Shown: one piece after another, positions 36,886-46,877 of the stretch
Numbering within the stretch: position 1 is the first letter of the stretch
How the letters are laid out: every line of letters begins with the position of its first letter
Source: Phycisphaerae bacterium
GTDB taxonomy: Bacteria; Planctomycetota; Phycisphaerae; UBA1845; Fen-1342
Length of the DNA stretch: 64,000 nucleotides
Direction: 5' to 3'
NCBI GenBank assembly: GCA_050115495.1
Contig: JASFQK010000033.1
Coordinates: forward strand, 17,362-81,361
Notes under the pieces: generated by a model
Databases searched by the model: none
The model's input: the letters and a program-made list of their open reading frames with translations, nothing else
What the model was told of the DNA's origin: nothing
Made by a program: the position numbers and the translations under genes

Positions 36886-39800
36886 ATGCCTACCGTATCG
36901 AACAACACACGGGTAGTGACCAGGTCGACATCCTCACGCCGGCGACGCGGAGCGCTTAGCGTCGGCCTCTGGCTGGCCGCGATGCTCCTCGCCGCCTGGC
37001 CGGCCAGCGCGCTGGCCCAGACCGACCCGGCGACCTCGACGGTCGTGGCCGCCGACGGCGTGGCCGTCGCCAATGGCGTCGACACCGAGCTCATCACGGT
37101 GACGTTGCTCGACGCCACGTTGAACCCTGTGGTGGGCCACACCGTCTCGCTCGCCGCGATCGGTGCCCCCGCCGGCGTGGTCATCAGTGCTCCCTCCGGG
37201 CCCTCCGACGGCAGCGGCGAGGTAACCTTCACCGTTACCTCGACCGACTCGTACGCCGCCCCCGGCGTCGAGTTTGAGGCCACCGACGACACCGACACCG
37301 TCACGATTATCCAGACGGCCTTCGTCGTCTTTGACCCCGGCCCGACCAGCGCCGCGACCTCGACCGTCGCGGCCGCCGACGGGACGGCGGTTGCCGACGG
37401 CATCGAGACCGAGATCATCACCGTCACGCTGCTCGACGCCAACAGCAACCCGATTCCCGGCCACGCCGTCTCGCTGCTCGCGGACGGGTCGCCGGCGGGT
37501 GTGGTCATCGCCGCGGTTGGCGGACAAACCCACTCCGACGCCAACGGCCAGGTCTTCTACGCCGTTCGTTCGAGCGTCCCCCACAGCCCCGTCGGCGTTA
37601 CGTTCCGGGCCTATGACCTGACCGAGCTCGTCGCCATCACGCAGACGGCCGACGTCGTCTTCACCACCAACGAGACCGACGCCGGCACTTCCACGGTCAG
37701 CGCCAACCCCGCCACCGTGCCGGCCAACGGCACGACCACCAGCCTGATCACCGTCGTGCTGAGCAACGCGGGTGGTAATCCCGTGCCGGGTCACGCGGTC
37801 TCGCTCGCGGCGATCGGCGCCCCGTCCGGTGTCAGCATCAGCGCCCCGTCCGGTGTCTCCACCGCCGCCGGCGTCGTCACCTTCACCGTGACTTCCACCG
37901 ACGTCCACGCCGCCCCCGGCGTCGAGTTCGAGGCCACCGACGACACCGACGCAACGACCATCATCGACACGGCCTTCGTCGTCTTCGCGGCCGGCACCAC
38001 CAGCTCCTCGGCCTCGACCGTTGACGCGGCCGATGGCACCGCCCTGGCCAACGGCGTCGAAACCGAACTCATCACCGTCACACTGTTCGACAGCAACGGT
38101 CACCGGCTCGCCGGTCACAACGTCTCGCTGGCCGCCGTCGGCAGTCCCGCCGGCGTCGCCGTCAGCGCCCCCTCGGGCCCCTCGGACGTTGCCGGCCAGG
38201 TGACCTTCAGCGTCACCTCGAACGTCGCCCATGGCGCCCCCGGCGTTGAATTCCGGGCCACCGACACGACTGACGGCGTTGCCATCGCCGACACCGCCTT
38301 CGTCGTCTTCACCCCTGGCGCCACCAGCGCCAGTGCCTCGACCGTTGATCCGGCGGACGGCGCCTGCACCGCCAACGGCTCCGAAACCGAGCTCATCACC
38401 GTCACCCTGCGTGACGCCAACAACAACCCCATCGCCGGCCACAGCGTATCGCTGGCGGCCGTCGGTGCCCCCGCCGGCGTGAACATCAGTGCCCCCTCCG
38501 GACCCTCCACTGCCGCTGGCGTGGTCACCTTCACCGTGTCTTCCAGCGTGGCCTACGCCGCTCCCGGCGTTGAGTTCGAGGCCACCGACGATACGGCGGC
38601 GACGACCATTCTCGACACGGCGTTTGTCGTCTTCACCACGGGTTCGACGAGTTCGACCACCTCGGCGGTTGCGGCCGCCGACGGCACCGCCATCGCCGAC
38701 GGCGCCGAGACCGAGCTGATCACCGTCACCCTGCGCGACGGCAGCAGCAACCCGGTCGTCGGCCACAACGTCTCGCTGGTCGCCGTCGGCGCCCCGGCGG
38801 GTGTGGCGATCAGCGCCCCCTCCGGTGCCTCCGACGGCAGCGGTCAGGTAACCTTCACTGTCACGTCGACCGTTTCCCACGCCGCCCCTGGCGTTGAGTT
38901 CCGCGCCACCGACACGACCGACGGCATCACCATCACGGACACGGCCGCCGTCGTCTTCACCGCCGGCCCCACCAGTGCCGCGGCGTCGACCGTCGTTGCG
39001 GCGGACGGCGTCTGCGTTGCCAACGGCATCGATACCGAGCTCATCACCGTCACGCTGCGCGACGCCCTGGGCAACCCCGTCCCCGGCCATAACGTGACGC
39101 TCACCGCCCTCGGCGCCCCCGCTGGCGTCGGCATCAGCGGCCCCTCCGGCATCTCCGGCCCGGACGGCGTCGTCACCTTCACGGTGACCTCGACCGTGGC
39201 CCACGGTGCCCCCGGCGTCGAATTCGAAGCCACTGACACAACCGCCGGCACGCCGATCACCGATACGGCGCTCGTCGTCTTCGGCTCCGGCTCGACGAGC
39301 TCCACGACGTCCACCGTCGCCCCGGCGGATGGCTCGGCTGTCGCCGACGGCGCGGAGACCGAACTGATCACCGTCACGCTGCGAGACGTGAACAGCAACC
39401 CGGTCGTCGGCCACAACGTTGTCCTGGTCGCCGTCGGCGGCCCGGCGGGTGTGGCGGTCGGCGCCGCTTCCGGCCCCTCCGATGGCGCCGGCATCGTGAC
39501 CTTCAACGTGACCTCGACCGTCTCCTACGCCGCCCCCGGCGTTGAGTTCCGCGCTACCGACACGACGGACGGCGTCGCCATCGCCGGCACGGCGTTCGTG
39601 ATCTTCGTCCCCGGCCCGACCGACGCCACGACCTCGATCGTCGATCCGGTCGATGGTACCTGCGTCGCCAACGGTAGCGACGGCGAGCTCATCACCGTTA
39701 CGCTGCTCGACGCACTGGGCAACCCCGTCCCCGGCCACGACGTCACACTCGTCGCGGTCGGCGCTCCTGCCGGCGTCACGATCAGCGCCCCCTCCGGCTC

Positions 39801-42800
39801 CTCGACCACCGCCGGCATCGTCACCTTCACGGTCCGGTCGACCGTGTCCTACGGAGCCCCCGGCGTTGAGTTCGAAGCCACCGACACGACCGCCGGCACG
39901 ACCATCAACGACACGGCGCTCGTGATCTTCGGCTCTGGCTCGACCAGTTCTACAACGTCCACCGTCGCCCCGGCCGACGGTACCGCCGTCGCTGACGGCG
40001 CGGAGACCGAGCTGATCACCGTCACACTGCGCGACGTGAACAGCAACCCGATCGCCGGCCACAACGTGTCTCTGGTCGCGGTCGGCGCCCCGGCGGGCGT
40101 CGCGATCAGCGCCCCCTCCGGTGCCTCCGACGCCGACGGTCACGTGACCTTCACGGTCACCTCGACCGTCACGCACGCTGCCCCCGGCGTCGAGTTCCGC
40201 GCGACCGACATGACTGACGGTATCACGATCACGGGTACGGCTCTGGTCGTTTTCACCGCCGGCTCTACCAGTGCGGCCAACTCCACCGTCGACGCGGCCC
40301 CTACGCAGGTCGCCGCCGACGGCGTCGCGGCCAGCACCGTCACCGTCACCCTGCGTGACGGGCTGAACAACCCCGTTCCCAATCACAACGTCTCGCTGGC
40401 GGCCACTGGCTCTCCGGCCGGTGTGGTCATCAGCGCCCCGTCCGGCCCCTCCGATGCCAACGGCGTCGTGACCTTCACCGTTACGTCCACCATGGCGTAT
40501 GACCCGCCGGGCGTCGAGTTCGTGGCCACGGACGACACCGTCGCCGTCACCATCACTGACACGGCGGACGTCGCCTTCACGCCGGACGCGACCAGCCCGG
40601 TCAACTCCACGGTCGATGCGGCCGATGGCACGGCCACGGCCGACGGCGCCGACACCGAGCTCATCACCGTCACCCTGCGTGACGCCAACAACAACCCCGT
40701 GCCCAACCACGACGTCGCCCTCGAGCTCGTCGGCGGCGGCACCATCGACTTCGGCGTGCCCTCCGGGCCCTCCGGCGCGAACGGCGTGGTCACCTTCAAC
40801 GTCTCCACCACCGTCGCCGCCTCGCTCACCATACGGGCCGTCGACACCACGGCCAGCGTCGTCATCAACGACACGGCCATCGTCGACTTTGTCCCCGGCC
40901 CGGCTGACCACTTGAGCTTCGTGCAGCAGCCGACCAACGTGGCCACGGGCAGCACGATCAATCCGCCCGTTACCGTCGAGATCCTCGACGCCCAGAACAA
41001 CCGCGTCACCACCGCCGTCGACCTGGTGAACCTCGTCATCGAGGCCAACCCTGGCGGTGGCACGCTCGACGGCACGCTGCCGCAAGCCGCGGTTGCCGGT
41101 TTGGCTACGTTTGCCGATCTGACCATCGACCACATCGGCGTTGGCTACACGCTGCGGGCCGAGGCCGTCGGTCTCACGCCGGCCACGTCGGCGCTCTTTG
41201 ACGTCTCCGCCGGCCGCAACCTGGTCGCCACCAGCGTCGAGCTGGTGAACGTCGGCGAGCAGCGGCACCTCCAGGCCAACTATTTCGTCGAGGGCGCCGA
41301 AATGCTCGGCGAGTTCGACATCACCTATCGCATCGAGCGTGCCGGCGGCGCCCTGGTCCATGAGGACACGGTGCGCATCACCGCCGCCGACCTGCGCACG
41401 CCCGGCTCGCGCAAGGCTGACCTGGGCGACATCCGTCCGTTCCTCAACGAGGTTATCGCTCAGGGTGACCGCCTGCTTATCGCCCTCGATTCCGCCAACG
41501 AGATCGACGAGGGCACGGCCGCCAACGAGACCGACAACGACGCCGAGACCTCGCTGACCGTCGACCTGGCCAGCCAGTCGATCGTCGCCGACGTCCAGGG
41601 TGTGAACTCCAGCGTGCGCGTCACGTACGCCGTGAACAGCCCCGCCGACGTGCCGCCCTTCGTCATTCGGGTCGGGATCGACACCAACGGCGACGGCACG
41701 ATCGACGACACGCTCCGCGACTACAGCACGGCGGCGGACGAGATCACGCCGGGCACGCACGTGGCCATCGTCGCACTGCCCACGCAGTTCACCGCCCGCG
41801 GCCTCGCCGCCAACGCCAACATCCGCATCGTGGCCCAGTTGGACGCCACCGGCACCGTGCTCGAATCCGACGCCGGCAACAACCGGGCCAACACGCAGAC
41901 CACGTACGGCGTCGACCTCGTGCTGACCCGCCTGGTCTTCCCCGGCACCGCTCTGGGGCAGGACTTCGAGGTCACGCTCGACTACACCGTTAACTCCAAC
42001 CCGGTCAGTGAGAACTTCACGATCGGTTTCTACGTCGCCGGCGATTCGCAGATCAGCGCCGCCAGCCTCGGTTCGGCCACGCGCTTCGCGACGCGGACCA
42101 TCACTACCGCGGCCGACCGCACCGTCGGCCTGCACACGAAGACGTTCGTGCTGAACATCCCGGCGGATGCCTTCGCCAGCATCAACTTCTTCGTCAAGGC
42201 CCGCATCGACGACGGCGCCGGCGTGACCGAGGTGGACGAGGGCAACAACATCATCGCTTCGCCCAACTCCACGTCCGATCCGAACGCCGATGTCGACGGC
42301 GACGGTCTCACCCGGCAGGAGGAGGAATCCGGCTTCCAGATTCCGGCGAACCAGATCTACCGCGCCGATGAGCCCCTGAGCAACGCGATCAGCCCGCTCG
42401 GTACCCGCACGTTCGATACCGAGCGTGACAGCGACGCCGACGGCCTCGACGACCGCCTCGAGCGTAAGACCGGCACCAACCCTGCCGACCGCGACAGCGA
42501 TGGCGACGGCATCACGGACGGCGTGGAAGACGCCAACCAGAACGGCATCGTCGACGCCGGCGAGACGAACCCGCGCCACTGGGACTCCGACGAGGACGGC
42601 CTCTCCGACCTTGAGGAGTTGACCGGCTTCGACATCACCCGCTACCCGGCCGGCCTCCAGTCCGGCCGCTTCCAGCGACAGCTCGTCGTGCGCGTTACGA
42701 CCGATCCCCGAAGGGCGGACACCGACGGTGACGGCCTCAGCGATTGGGACGAGGTCAACACCTACGCCCGGTCCGCCGACGGTGACGGCGGCGTGCCCAG

Positions 42801-43671
42801 CATCGGTCTGGACGCGCTCACGGCCCGGATCAGCCGCGCCGTGAACAAGCCGGTCTGGGGCATTCGCACCGACCCGACCCTCATCGACACCGACGAGGAC
42901 GGCCTGCCCGACTCCACCGACCCGGCGCCGGCCATCAACCCGGCTCGCTGGGGCTACGACACCCAGCCCGACGGCGGCACGGCGGACGGCCTCTTCAACG
43001 ACGAGGACATCCAGCGCCTGCGCACCGACCCCCGTCTCACGGCCGAACAGCAGGCCACCTACCCGACGACCGTCGAAGCCTTCCAGCGCCTGCTGCTCGA
43101 CTTCGACCAGGACCGCGACGGGTTCCTCGAAGCCCCCGACGCCAACGGCGACGGTTTCCCCGACTTCACCCGCTACAACGAGGCCACCCTCGAGCAGTCT
43201 TACCGCATCGACTTCAGCAACAACGGCAGCCTCGATGACGGCTTCGACGTCGGCGGTCTCAACCCCGGCAACGCCGACGCCCCCGCCGACACCAGCGGCG
43301 CCGCCCGCTACGGCTCCTACCGCGTCACCCACGCCGACGCCGGTGTGGCCCGCGGCGACGGCACGCTCGATCTCGCCGACGACACGCTCGATGCTCCGGG
43401 CGACGCCATCGGTTTCCTGCTCCTGGCCGACAACTGCCCCAACGAATACAACCCTGGCCAGGAGGACTTCGACGGCGACGGTCTCGGCGACCTGTGCGAC
43501 GCCGATCTCGATAACGACGGTGTGCCCAACGACATCGACTCCGTCCGGCAGACGCCGCTGGCCACGCCGGTCTGCGGTCTCGGCGTTGTTCAGGCCATGA
43601 TGCTCAGCCTGGCCGGTCTCATGGGCCTGCGCCTCGGCGGCGGCGCGCGTCGGCGACGCTCGGCCTGCTAG
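36886..43671 (+). CDS. Large surface adhesin-like protein: 12 Big_1 (invasin/intimin-type Ig) repeats, further Ig/CARDB-like domains, Ca-binding DxDxDG/TSP3 repeats, C-terminal CGxG-TM-basic anchor
   Basis: Signal ending ALA; 12 copies of ...A(D/N)G...ITVTLxD...NP..GH.VSL; DSDGDGITDG and DNCPNEYNPGQEDFDGDG; ends CGLGVVQAMMLSLAGLMGLRLGGGARRRRSAC. Confidence 0.9.
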   Translation: MPTVSNNTRVVTRSTSSRRRRGALSVGLWLAAMLLAAWPASALAQTDPATSTVVAADGVAVANGVDTELITVTLLDATLNPVVGHTVSLAAIGAPAGVVISAPSGPSDGSGEVTFTVTSTDSYAAPGVEFEATDDTDTVTIIQTAFVVFDPGPTSAATSTVAAADGTAVADGIETEIITVTLLDANSNPIPGHAVSLLADGSPAGVVIAAVGGQTHSDANGQVFYAVRSSVPHSPVGVTFRAYDLTELVAITQTADVVFTTNETDAGTSTVSANPATVPANGTTTSLITVVLSNAGGNPVPGHAVSLAAIGAPSGVSISAPSGVSTAAGVVTFTVTSTDVHAAPGVEFEATDDTDATTIIDTAFVVFAAGTTSSSASTVDAADGTALANGVETELITVTLFDSNGHRLAGHNVSLAAVGSPAGVAVSAPSGPSDVAGQVTFSVTSNVAHGAPGVEFRATDTTDGVAIADTAFVVFTPGATSASASTVDPADGACTANGSETELITVTLRDANNNPIAGHSVSLAAVGAPAGVNISAPSGPSTAAGVVTFTVSSSVAYAAPGVEFEATDDTAATTILDTAFVVFTTGSTSSTTSAVAAADGTAIADGAETELITVTLRDGSSNPVVGHNVSLVAVGAPAGVAISAPSGASDGSGQVTFTVTSTVSHAAPGVEFRATDTTDGITITDTAAVVFTAGPTSAAASTVVAADGVCVANGIDTELITVTLRDALGNPVPGHNVTLTALGAPAGVGISGPSGISGPDGVVTFTVTSTVAHGAPGVEFEATDTTAGTPITDTALVVFGSGSTSSTTSTVAPADGSAVADGAETELITVTLRDVNSNPVVGHNVVLVAVGGPAGVAVGAASGPSDGAGIVTFNVTSTVSYAAPGVEFRATDTTDGVAIAGTAFVIFVPGPTDATTSIVDPVDGTCVANGSDGELITVTLLDALGNPVPGHDVTLVAVGAPAGVTISAPSGSSTTAGIVTFTVRSTVSYGAPGVEFEATDTTAGTTINDTALVIFGSGSTSSTTSTVAPADGTAVADGAETELITVTLRDVNSNPIAGHNVSLVAVGAPAGVAISAPSGASDADGHVTFTVTSTVTHAAPGVEFRATDMTDGITITGTALVVFTAGSTSAANSTVDAAPTQVAADGVAASTVTVTLRDGLNNPVPNHNVSLAATGSPAGVVISAPSGPSDANGVVTFTVTSTMAYDPPGVEFVATDDTVAVTITDTADVAFTPDATSPVNSTVDAADGTATADGADTELITVTLRDANNNPVPNHDVALELVGGGTIDFGVPSGPSGANGVVTFNVSTTVAASLTIRAVDTTASVVINDTAIVDFVPGPADHLSFVQQPTNVATGSTINPPVTVEILDAQNNRVTTAVDLVNLVIEANPGGGTLDGTLPQAAVAGLATFADLTIDHIGVGYTLRAEAVGLTPATSALFDVSAGRNLVATSVELVNVGEQRHLQANYFVEGAEMLGEFDITYRIERAGGALVHEDTVRITAADLRTPGSRKADLGDIRPFLNEVIAQGDRLLIALDSANEIDEGTAANETDNDAETSLTVDLASQSIVADVQGVNSSVRVTYAVNSPADVPPFVIRVGIDTNGDGTIDDTLRDYSTAADEITPGTHVAIVALPTQFTARGLAANANIRIVAQLDATGTVLESDAGNNRANTQTTYGVDLVLTRLVFPGTALGQDFEVTLDYTVNSNPVSENFTIGFYVAGDSQISAASLGSATRFATRTITTAADRTVGLHTKTFVLNIPADAFASINFFVKARIDDGAGVTEVDEGNNIIASPNSTSDPNADVDGDGLTRQEEESGFQIPANQIYRADEPLSNAISPLGTRTFDTERDSDADGLDDRLERKTGTNPADRDSDGDGITDGVEDANQNGIVDAGETNPRHWDSDEDGLSDLEELTGFDITRYPAGLQSGRFQRQLVVRVTTDPRRADTDGDGLSDWDEVNTYARSADGDGGVPSIGLDALTARISRAVNKPVWGIRTDPTLIDTDEDGLPDSTDPAPAINPARWGYDTQPDGGTADGLFNDEDIQRLRTDPRLTAEQQATYPTTVEAFQRLLLDFDQDRDGFLEAPDANGDGFPDFTRYNEATLEQSYRIDFSNNGSLDDGFDVGGLNPGNADAPADTSGAARYGSYRVTHADAGVARGDGTLDLADDTLDAPGDAIGFLLLADNCPNEYNPGQEDFDGDGLGDLCDADLDNDGVPNDIDSVRQTPLATPVCGLGVVQAMMLSLAGLMGLRLGGGARRRRSAC
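37021..40890 (+). repeat. Intragenic tandem array of 12 ~330-bp Ig-domain repeats
   Basis: Recurrent GAGCT(C/G)ATCACCGTCAC and CCCGGCGT(C/T)GAGTTC blocks at about 330-bp spacing. Confidence 0.85.
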
Positions 43672-43701: not shown

Positions 43702-43733
43702 AGCGGCGGCCGAACCAACGTTCGGCCGCCGCT
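43702..43733. terminator. Intrinsic terminator between convergent genes
   Basis: AGCGGCGGCCGAAC-CAAC-GTTCGGCCGCCGCT 14-bp perfect stem; GTTTT follows on the minus strand. Confidence 0.75.
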
Positions 43734-43771: not shown

Positions 43772-45073
43772 TTACGGCGCCGGCTGCGTCGTCGCCGGCG
43801 GCTTGGGCCGCGCCCTGTGCGGCGCGCGCACCACCGGGATGCGCAGCGGTTTGTTGCCGTCGTTCTCCGTTCGCACGATCACGAAGGTTGATCCCGGCGG
43901 CTCGTAGTCTGCGGGGACCGTCAGCGTGATCACCGGTCGCGGCTCTGCATCGTAGCGCACCTTGACCGTCGGGTCCGTGCACGACACGTTCACGACCTTG
44001 TCTTCCTGGCCCGGTGCCCACGCCAGCCGCACGGCGAAGTCCTGCTCGGCCGGCAGATTGGCCGACAGACCGAAGCGCGGCGGCACCGATCGCAGCCGCG
44101 GTGTCAACTGCCCGATCACGCGGATTCGCTCTTCCGGCGACTCCGGCACACCTGTCTTCACCACCAGCGTCTCACGCAGGTACTTCTTCGGCCAGGGCGG
44201 TGTGAACGTCACTTGGAGCTCGTACCGCTCTCCCTTCTCGACCTCGCGCACCTCCACCGTCAATTGCGGGTTCTTCGGCGTTTCCACCACCGGCGCGATC
44301 GGTCCGCCGTCCCCGCGGGTCAGCCTCAGCTTGCGCGTGATGGCGGGCGTGCTCGCCGTGACCAACCCGAAGTTCACGAGCGACGGACTGAGGCGCAGCG
44401 GCTCGTACACGAAACCCTTGCACACCAGCCGCAACTGTGCCTGCTGGGCGTCGTTCGTCTCAACGCGGACAGTCTTCTCGAACTTGCCCCGCCGAGCCGT
44501 CGTCGGGACACTCACCTTGACTTCTTCTGCCTGACCCGGAGCGATGGTACGGTCCAACTGACCGTGGATGGTGAGCCCTCACGGCTTCAGCAGGTGGATG
44601 TCCAGGGCGCCTTGCCCCTCGTTGCGCACCGAGAAAACGAACTCGATGCTTGGGCCCCGCCAGCAGGCCGCCTTCTCCAGCTCCGGCTTGTCACACGTCA
44701 CTTTCGGCTGCGGCTGATCCGCTGGCGGGGGGATCAACCGGCGATTGCTGGTATCCCCGCAGCCCTTCGCCCCCGCCGGCTGCGTGGCCGGCTGCGGTGT
44801 GGCGGGTTTCTTCTCCTGTGACTTATCGGCCCCTTCCTTCTTCTTCGCCTCGTGGGCTTGGCGGACCGCCTCCTCGATCATGCGGATCAGCTCGGCGTCC
44901 GATTGCTGGGTCGGCTGGCTGGCCGGGGGCTCGGTTACTTCCTGCGGAACCGGGCCAGCGCCCGCCCGCGGGACCACCGCCACACCCAACGCGATCGCCA
45001 GCACCAGCGCCCCGCCCGCAATCCACGGGCCCGGTCGCCTGCCGTTTCGCCCCTTCGCCCTAATTCCCTTCAT
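43772..45073 (-). CDS. DUF1573-like secreted multi-Ig protein A with in-frame UGA at codon 165; candidate selenoprotein (433 aa if read through)
   Basis: ORFs 44579..45136 and 43772..44557 are in the same frame, separated by one TGA (44579-44581): FSVRNEGQGALDIHLLKP-TGA-GLTIHGQLDRTIAPGQAEEVKVSV...GKFEKTVRVETND. ATG 45073 has a GGAG RBS and is followed by a hydrophobic signal. Confidence 0.75.
44549..44565 (-). promoter_or_regulatory. Candidate bacterial SECIS hairpin A
   Basis: UGA + 13 nt + ACGGUC-AGUUG-GACCGU; loop begins 19 nt after the UGA with G at loop position 2. Confidence 0.62.
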
Positions 45074-45261
45074 TGACTCCGTCCTGGGTAGGCCCACTCG
45101 CCGACCAACGTACGCCTGCCGGTTCCCGACCGACAACAGCCGGCTATTCTATCGACCACTTGGTTATTCACCAAAACCCCCCGGGCGCACGCCAAATAGA
45201 ACCGCCGCCGGCAGAAGCCGGCGGCGGTCTGATAGTCGTCATTGCGATGCGCCCGGTCGCG

Positions 45262-46710
45262 CTACGGCGCGGGCTGCGTGGTCGGCGGTTGCGCCCTGAC
45301 CCGCGACGGCGGCTTGGTCACCCGCGGCGCGGCCTGCCTGGCAGGCTGCCCCCGTACCGGCGGCGTCCCGGCCCCAGCTCCAGCCGCCGGCCGGATTCCT
45401 CGTACCGGCTGCCGCACGACCGGAATCCGCAGGTTCGGCGCTTCCGTATCGTCCGTCATCACGGTGACCGCCACCACGCCCGTGGGCGAGTAATCCGCCG
45501 GGATGCTCACCACAACGTACGGTTTTCCGTCACGTTCCTCGTACCGTCCCGTCAGAGCCGTGTCCGAGCACACCACCTTCAGGACCTTGCCCGGGTTCGA
45601 TCCGGCCCACATCAACTGCACCGGCACTTCGAGCGCATCCGGCAACACGGCCGGCACACTCAGCCGCGGCGGATTCGCCCTCAACCGCGGCGGCGTCCGG
45701 CCCAGCACCGAAATCGTCTCGATCGGGCTTTCGGTCACGCCTGTCTTGAGCGACACCGTCCCGCGGAAACTGCTCGACGGCAATGGCGGCGTCAGCGTCA
45801 CGTCCAGCTCGTATCGCTCGCCGGGCTCGACTTCCCGAAGCTGCGCCGACATCTGCCGCTCGGCGATCGGCATGAGCTCCAGGGCCAGCGGCCCGCCGTC
45901 ACCACGCTTGATCTGCAGCGTCTTCGTCTGCGGTCCGCCTTCCCGGTTGAACGCGTTGAAGTTCACGATGCGCAGGTTCGTCGTGAACGGAACCAGCGCC
46001 TTGCCCTTGCACGATAGTGCCACACTGCGGTTCTGCGGGTCATTCGTCTGTACGCGGATGTCCTTGCTGAAGGCACCGGACCGCGACCGCGTGCTGATGC
46101 TTACCTTCACTTCTTCCGTTGCGCCCGGCGCGATAGAACGGTCAGCCTGACCGTCGATCTTGACGCCTCACCCTCCCTTGGCGCGGATATTCAGCACGCC
46201 CTCTCCCTCGTTCTTGATCTTGAATACGAACTCCGCCATCGCCCCGCCCCACGTCGGCGCCGCCTCCACGAGCGGTTGCTCGCAGACGTACTTCGGTTGC
46301 GGCTGATCCGCCGCCGGCGGCGTCAGATCCAGCTTCCCCGTCGCTCCGCCACAGCCCGACGCCGGCTTCGCCGCCTGCGGCGCTTTCTGAGTCGGAGTCT
46401 GCGGGTTGGCGGGTGCCGGTCTCACCGGACGCACCACGGGCGGAGCCGTCTTCGGCGGCGCCGTGGTTCCCTCCTGCTGCGCCTGACGGACCAGCTCCTC
46501 GATCTGCCGCGTCAACTCCTCTGCCGTCGGGTTGTCGCCACCGGCCGGCTGCGATGCCGGGGGCTGTGCGCTGCTCACCGCTTGCCCGGCCCCATCACCA
46601 GCCCAGGCAACCTCCGCCCCCAGTAACGTGACTACCAGTACGCACAGTCCCGGCACCAGCAGATGACGCAGCCATCTGCGGGCCGACCTGCCTTTGTCCA
46701 CGCTTACCAT
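45262..46710 (-). CDS. DUF1573-like secreted multi-Ig protein B with in-frame UGA at codon 181; candidate selenoprotein (482 aa if read through)
   Basis: ORFs 46168..46773 and 45262..46110 are in the same frame, separated by one TGA (46168-46170): FKIKNEGEGVLNIRAKGG-TGA-GVKIDGQADRSIAPGATEEVKVSI...GAFSKDIRVQTND. ATG 46710 has a GAGGA RBS and a signal ending AWA. Confidence 0.75.
46138..46154 (-). promoter_or_regulatory. Candidate bacterial SECIS hairpin B
   Basis: UGA + 13 nt + ACGGUC-AGGCU-GACCGU; stem and spacing identical to hairpin A. Confidence 0.62.
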
Positions 46711-46877
46711 CCGTAGTCCTCGATGAGAATCATGCACCCGCGCCGCTTCGGCACAGCCCGTCATCGGCAGCAAGGCCGCGCACGGCGACGCAAAGTCGCT
46801 ATTATACCGCGCGCCGCCGGGCAGTGGTACGGAATTACCGGTCCGCGCCGCCGGCCAACCGATCAGGAGGTGCTCCG

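Follow-up and report, generated by a model that had tools for sequence, protein, structure and literature searches.

Two tandem genes on the minus strand of the window (the whole 64,000-nt stretch of Phycisphaerae DNA analysed here) each encode a DUF1573 (PF07610) protein and contain an in-frame UGA codon (Table 1). When the UGA is read as selenocysteine (Sec), the frames 45262-46773 and 43772-45136 are open, each with this single UGA. The ATG at 46710 is the likely start of gene A, picked from a GAGGA located 6 nt upstream, and that at 45073 is the likely start of gene B. The two genes are paralogs with 42% identity, and gene A encodes a hydrophobic N-terminal segment, a Pro-rich linker, an Ig-like domain, and the motif G-G-U-G-V. 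In three Cys paralogs of the same genome, both UGA positions correspond to the first Cys of C-G-C. The same letters as at the UGA of gene A were found in an RNA-library contig covering 46080-46383, from which transcription, strand, and level are not readable, and those at the UGA of gene B in a DNA contig of another study covering 44389-44648. Because both UGAs and their hairpins are identical in contigs from other studies, they are not assembly errors. G+C-rich inverted repeats, terminator-like by eye, lie at 45202-45229 between the two genes and at 43703-43732 after gene B.

Table 1. Features of the two DUF1573 genes (positions in the window)
Feature	Position	Strand	Description
Gene A, DUF1573 (PF07610) protein	45262..46710	minus	482 aa from the likely ATG at 46710, with UGA as Sec
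In-frame UGA of gene A	46168..46170	minus	aligns with the first Cys of the family C-G-C motif
SECIS-like hairpin A	46138..46154	minus	7-bp stem (8 with G-U), GGC triloop, G at +21 (46147), -9.5 kcal/mol
Gene B, paralog of A	43772..45073	minus	433 aa from the likely ATG at 45073, with UGA as Sec; motif K-P-U-G-L
In-frame UGA of gene B	44579..44581	minus	same aligned position as the UGA of gene A
SECIS-like hairpin B	44549..44565	minus	6-bp stem, loop AGUUG with A/G closing mismatch, G at +21 (44558), -7.7 kcal/mol

Both proteins passed the PF07610 gathering score of 26.1 bits (43.1 and 47.7 bits), while their scores against NF041425, the model of the OS_HP2 selenoprotein, were 46.3 and 51.5 bits, below its cut-off of 100. 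The catalogued U-G-C motif is absent from both genes, which have U-G-V (A) and U-G-L (B), and a Cys at Sec+2 was found in none of the 33 UGA genes of their clade. The DUF1573 domain is predicted to be an Ig-like sandwich with the Sec position in an inter-strand loop; its fold model (pLDDT 95.8) gave matches to 2QSV and to Ig domains of the ASH/PapD-like type. The model gave nothing on the role of Sec, and our guess is that the single Sec might serve as an exposed redox or metal-binding site. Judging from a hydrophobic N-terminus, the protein is probably exported.

The earlier note had placed an identical hairpin at identical spacing behind both UGAs, and this holds on the minus strand: in each gene the UGA is followed by 13 nt and then by ACGGUC and GACCGU, which enclose AGGCU in gene A and AGUUG in gene B. 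Both hairpins folded as proposed. The 6-bp stems are the same in the two genes, and the loops differ at three of the five letters. The five-letter loop described in that note had to be redrawn, since the first and last letters pair in gene A (A-U) to leave a GGC triloop and form an A/G mismatch in gene B; the conserved loop is a three-letter G-[G/U]-N beginning at +21 and closed by a variable pair. The wobble argument of the note stood in part. GGT and CGT are indeed disfavored (12.6% of Gly and 10.1% of Arg codons in 1,988 training genes) and their U residues do sit in the stem, but these U residues pair with A residues, not with each other (U+18 with A+26 and U+30 with A+14), and the two A residues are second-codon-position bases.

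Several observations limit what the two genes can tell by themselves. The exact pattern had four matches in the window compared with none in 100 shuffles, and two of the four (palindrome copies at 39829 and 40153) lie in a plus-strand gene at 36886-43671, which encodes a 2,261-aa repeat-rich surface-type protein and has no in-frame UGA; thus, the pattern by itself lacks specificity. Similar hairpins with G at +21 followed 86 of 135,590 TGA triplets (dG <= -6) and 16 of 15,251 Cys codons (dG <= -5). The 60-nt regions of the two genes were no more stable than shuffles (z of 1.54 and -0.38), so that folding energy alone lends no support, and a search of 44400-46300 against Rfam found no family over either hairpin at E <= 10. 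Outside the hairpin, the paralogs have the same codon at 45 of 83 identical G/A/V/P/T/R positions, slightly more than the 33-47% expected from codon bias; because their silent sites are therefore not fully saturated, the wobble argument drawn from two genes is weak alone. The case is settled by comparison of homologs, not by the two genes alone.

Of 151 genomes of the same order that were searched, 144 contained relatives, and almost all of the top matches have one TGA. The fetched loci (at most 30 per search, together with 47 chosen stretches of relatives) were picked by score or TGA flag, with a further 188 matches outside those listed, and 35 UGA sites and 58 Cys sites were anchored from them. 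The gap-free alignment of UGA sites has 33 rows and leaves out L043, which has a 3-nt insertion, and L121, which is in another register. In this alignment, the seven pairs between +14 to +20 and +24 to +30 were formed in 222 of 231 cells (96.1%), as compared with 20-42% in slid controls. Two-sided changes in the stem numbered 42 across the 33 sites, and none of 500 shuffles scored as high, although a second measure, the number of further pair types, stood no higher than in shuffled alignments (409 of 500). Unaided, RNAalifold predicted the same seven pairs and nothing else; it gave no common lower stem or bulge, only the upper helix being conserved. The loop G is invariant in all 33 rows, and the loops among 32 rows were GUC (18), GGC (7), GUU (4), GGU (2), and GGG (1), with the N1-N2 closing pair formed in 27 of 33.

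Since the element is itself translated, in three of its pairs a wobble position is matched with a second codon position, and the RNA thereby dictates residues 5, 7, and 9 after Sec. At +18/+26, 25 rows have U-A and eight have C-G, the latter giving Gly in place of Asp at residue 9. The pair +14/+30 takes four forms, and in 30 of 33 rows the last base of the Arg codon accords with the central base of codon 5. The pair +20/+24 accompanies Gln, Arg, or Pro and is broken in six of 33. Pairing overrides the protein sequence, in that residue 9 switches between Asp and Gly when the wobble base paired with its codon changes. The motif G-[Q/R/P]-x-[D/G]-R after Sec is largely an imprint of the hairpin. 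The genomes are kin, and changes were also counted by parsimony on a tree built from 32 rows with the hairpin codons masked (L043 and four Cys rows left out), which, as all trees here, is a quick tree. At +18/+26 there were six changes on each side, six of them joint, so that the two sides always changed together; the counts for the two sides and joint changes were 11, 10, and 11 at +14/+30 and 10, 13, and 15 at +20/+24. On this tree, the paired changes are repeated events and not one inherited change. The covariation that the earlier note proposed to look for was thus found, with stem pairs kept by two-sided changes that no shuffle matched.

The hairpin is also linked to UGA and not to Cys. 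A fixed rule (G-[G/U]-N loop, core of at least 4 bp, dG <= -5) was satisfied at 35 of 35 UGA sites and at none of 58 Cys sites in the order; because it was set after the UGA sites had been viewed, the first count is partly by construction and the test lies in the Cys count and in the background of 331 of 15,251 Cys codons. The 58 Cys sites exclude five poorly anchored non-UGA rows. Even among Cys homologs that have Arg10, or Gly6 and Asp9, 12 of 13 form three or fewer of the five core pairs. Equal conservation in Cys homologs, which the note had named as evidence against its reading, is thus not what we see, the exception being L052, which has a stem with a GAA loop. Absence from other UGA-containing homologs was not seen either, the hairpin being present at all 35 UGA sites anchored in the order. 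In DUF1573 genes of other orders, the rule was satisfied at none of eight UGA sites. These eight sites come from two other families of the phylum and have hairpins at about +16 or +40, and the idea of a family-wide DUF1573 hairpin was accordingly rejected. In the U-G-C DUF1573 genes of two other families (L127-L129 and L152-L157), candidate hairpins lie near +16 and near +40, the latter spanning Pro-Gly-Gly codons.

The main Sec clade of the DUF1573 tree comprises 37 rows (SH-aLRT 100, quick tree) and includes four Cys genes, three of which are without the hairpin; in the fourth, the paralog L052, six stem pairs persist below the GAA loop. One Cys gene of another family, the Omp28-like genes, retains the full hairpin, and remnant hairpins in Cys genes are described in PMC1794560 and PMC13582414. 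Two UGA genes, L121 and L062, fall outside the main clade (AU p of 0.0003 and 0.015 on a 30-row quick tree, for groups named after the first tree was seen). L062 shares the main-clade hairpin and carries U-G-C, the stem of L121 is unrelated and its loop G sits at +22, and L043, with its one-codon insertion, has G at +24. The placement of L121 and L062 suggests that their hairpins had separate origins and converged on the same place. A scan of named genomes found just three distant loci. We also observed vicinal Cys-Cys at the motif in P0013 and in three of the four in-clade Cys genes, within a set comprising L052, L053, L064, L121, and P0013; in L121 the two residues are Cys-Sec.

The genome carries the machinery for Sec insertion. 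A tRNA-Sec gene (selC) scored 66.7 bits, selA, selB, and selD were over their cut-offs, the last with one TGA, and SelB has the winged-helix, RNA-binding SelB-wing_3 domain. UGA is the commonest stop codon (856 of 1,988 training genes), and recoding must therefore be local. The claim of RNA-level selection for a SECIS is thus strongly supported by covariation, by the linkage to UGA versus Cys, by the Sec machinery, and by agreement with the published consensus, and we consider it highly probable that each hairpin is a bacterial SECIS read by SelB with Sec-tRNA, with each UGA decoded as Sec to give one full-length DUF1573 protein. Three other readings, which together account for only a small share of the probability, were weighed against this.

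First, the signal could be of the SECIS type with UGA decoded as Cys by a specialised tRNA (tRNA-ReC/SelC*). Such tRNAs are reported in PMC13582414 to decode UGA as Cys with a downstream SECIS, the genome is 92% complete, and ARAGORN made a second UCA call, on contig C3. However, that call sits within a coding frame of 328 codons, the Rfam search for tRNA-Sec gave one real match with the other seven coinciding with ordinary Ser, Arg, Tyr, or Leu tRNAs, and a single selB was over the cut-off, which makes decoding as Cys very unlikely. Second, the UGA could be a true stop, with the hairpin acting in re-initiation of a second gene or in SelB-independent leaky readthrough. Their N-termini indicate that 11 of 15 database relatives begin only after the Sec position, as this reading would have it, but gene callers routinely split selenoprotein genes. 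The UGA would moreover divide the DUF1573 domain exactly at the conserved Cys, the frame and position are maintained in 35 sites, and full-length relatives with Cys there exist (P0005, P0013, L052, and L053), so that this reading is equally improbable. Last, that the hairpin is a by-product of conserved G-Q-x-D-R residues and paralog ancestry with no RNA function, for which one might cite Gly6 and Asp9/Arg10 in Cys homologs, the two palindromes in an unrelated gene of the window, and the incompletely saturated synonymous sites of the paralogs, is contradicted by the covariation and hardly worth entertaining, since residues swap (Asp/Gly; Gln/Arg/Pro) so that pairs stay, the Arg codon changes at its third position in step with the second position of codon 5, and the stem does not form in Cys homologs that share these residues.

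Other UGA genes of the genome and its order allowed us to examine whether the hairpin defines a SECIS consensus of the lineage, as the earlier note had proposed. The proposal holds only in part. The triloop does recur. SelD genes have the same loop type at +34 in 28 of 28 TGA sites read, three of these hairpins being weak (-2.4 to -4.6), and three selD loci without a TGA fell outside the pattern. SelW-like genes have a triloop at +23 in 27 of 29, with 92% of the stem paired and 12 two-sided changes; one SelW-like locus without a TGA yielded no row. Omp28-like genes have a triloop at +20 or +23 in 12 of 13 TGA and one of nine Cys sites, the 22 sites having been recovered from 31 loci. The stems and spacings differ among these families, however, and two other UGA families of the same genome have other loops, so the idea of a single lineage consensus was rejected. 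In the PEP-CTERM family, all 13 TGA rows carry GGUC at +23, in most cases as a tetraloop. The TlpA-like family has a long stem whose best loop has no G in its first two letters in six of 18 TGA rows, and this long conserved stem is possibly a non-canonical SECIS. Because the families differ in this way, the stem letters and spacing belong to each gene family, and because the triloop rule missed the TlpA-like and PEP-CTERM UGA genes, the selenoproteome of the genome may still be incomplete.

Several side observations were made in these families. In the selD genes of the order (L165-L191), an additional hairpin often lies after the UGA and ahead of the +34 element. A SelW/Rdx gene with CxxU (L222:454-810, minus, from contig G000:C23) has a 17-nt hairpin letter-identical to that of an unrelated DUF1573 gene in L046. 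Of the two Omp28-like UGA genes, L223 (G000:C14) has a 79% identical Cys neighbor without the hairpin, and L224 (C3) is without the second Cys of UxxC. The PEP-CTERM gene with its UGA at G000:C24:38900-38902, minus (L258), and its relatives L284-L301 have C-x-U or C-U, and their stem seems to covary. In the TlpA-like genes, the UGA lies about 70 codons before CxxC (G000:C39:50966-50968 and C21:59075-59077, both minus; L256 and L257; relatives L259-L274), and a single internal TAG or TAA was flagged in the matches of the Cys homologs L275 and L276.

Returning to reading by SelB, the element would work as follows. With the UGA in the A site, the loop about 20 nt ahead would lie outside the ribosome and hold the last winged-helix domain of SelB, as is established for such systems. 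The alignments suggest that SelB reads the loop G and then G/U on a stem of 6-7 bp, the letters being free at several pairs, whereupon the ribosome would insert Sec at the UGA to give a full-length, probably exported DUF1573 protein. A broader proposal, on which we are evenly divided, is that a minimal SECIS, a single short helix that has neither bulge nor lower stem and ends in a G-[G/U]-N triloop, had three or more independent origins in this Phycisphaerae order, each at the same distance from a Cys-to-Sec change in a DUF1573 protein. It would then have forced repeated residue swaps in an exported subfamily that lost its partner Cys, with one SelB reading three SECIS shapes, including the tetraloop and G-less hairpins of two other gene families. 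If this is true, the homologs already amount to a compensatory mutagenesis experiment that maps SelB recognition.

With these results, two genes that had been split in error become well-supported selenoprotein genes. Neither was picked up at the first threshold of a coding-score scan used by itself, whose output was mostly noise; a scan with Cys paralogs and a hairpin scan recovered them. Bacterial SECIS elements are usually inferred from a single fold per gene; the natural double mutations found here show which pairs matter and present an RNA signal that overrides amino-acid choice. They also make exact mutants available for studying SelB specificity outside E. coli, which should help in predicting selenoproteins and in engineering Sec insertion.

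The SECIS of E. coli fdhF is likewise an in-frame hairpin soon after the UGA with G and then U/G at its tip, as in genes A and B. The fdhF element has a loop of four letters and depends on a U bulged from its stem, whereas hairpins A and B have an unbulged stem and a triloop; the PEP-CTERM family with its GGUC loop looks nearer to fdhF. With regard to the protein family, DUF1573/OS_HP2 has figured among the known selenoprotein families since PMC1976440, and the motif is given as UGC in PMC9312934 and PMC13188914. Genes A and B likewise have the UGA at the first Cys of C-G-C but are missing the partner Cys, so that the catalogued family gains a U-G-x branch without a second Cys; the DUF1573 UGA genes of other orders keep U-G-C and have hairpins other than those of A and B. 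In the mostly open-access literature searched, we found no paper on SECIS elements and selenocysteine in Phycisphaerae, and passages of PMC4807772 and PMC1794560, from the literature on Planctomycete selenoproteins, SECIS, and SelB, do not contain the hairpin element; supplementary selenoproteome tables may already list genes A and B.

The consensus model for bacterial SECIS elements is that of bSECISearch (Zhang and Gladyshev 2005, as described in PMC13188914), with a loop of 3-9 nt, an upper stem of 4-16 bp, a distance of 16-37 nt from the UGA, and an energy of -7.5 kcal/mol or lower, and with G in the first two loop positions, mostly as N1-G-[G/U]-N-N2 with N1 and N2 paired (PMC13188914). 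Both hairpins are within coding sequence, directly 3' of a UGA that is in frame and occupies a conserved Cys position, have a loop of 3 or 5 nt on a stem of 6-8 bp, and keep a UGA-loop distance of 19-20 nt, all within these ranges. Their energies of -9.5 and -7.7 kcal/mol, calculated for the hairpins alone whereas bSECISearch may fold a longer stretch, are also below the threshold, and SelA, SelB with an RNA-binding wing, SelC, and SelD are all encoded in the genome. Nothing essential differs from the consensus, the closing pair of gene B being a mismatch, and it is because of this match that the hairpins are very likely SECIS elements read by SelB. Taken together, the U-G-x subfamily of DUF1573 and the covariation record are new, while the mechanism itself is textbook.
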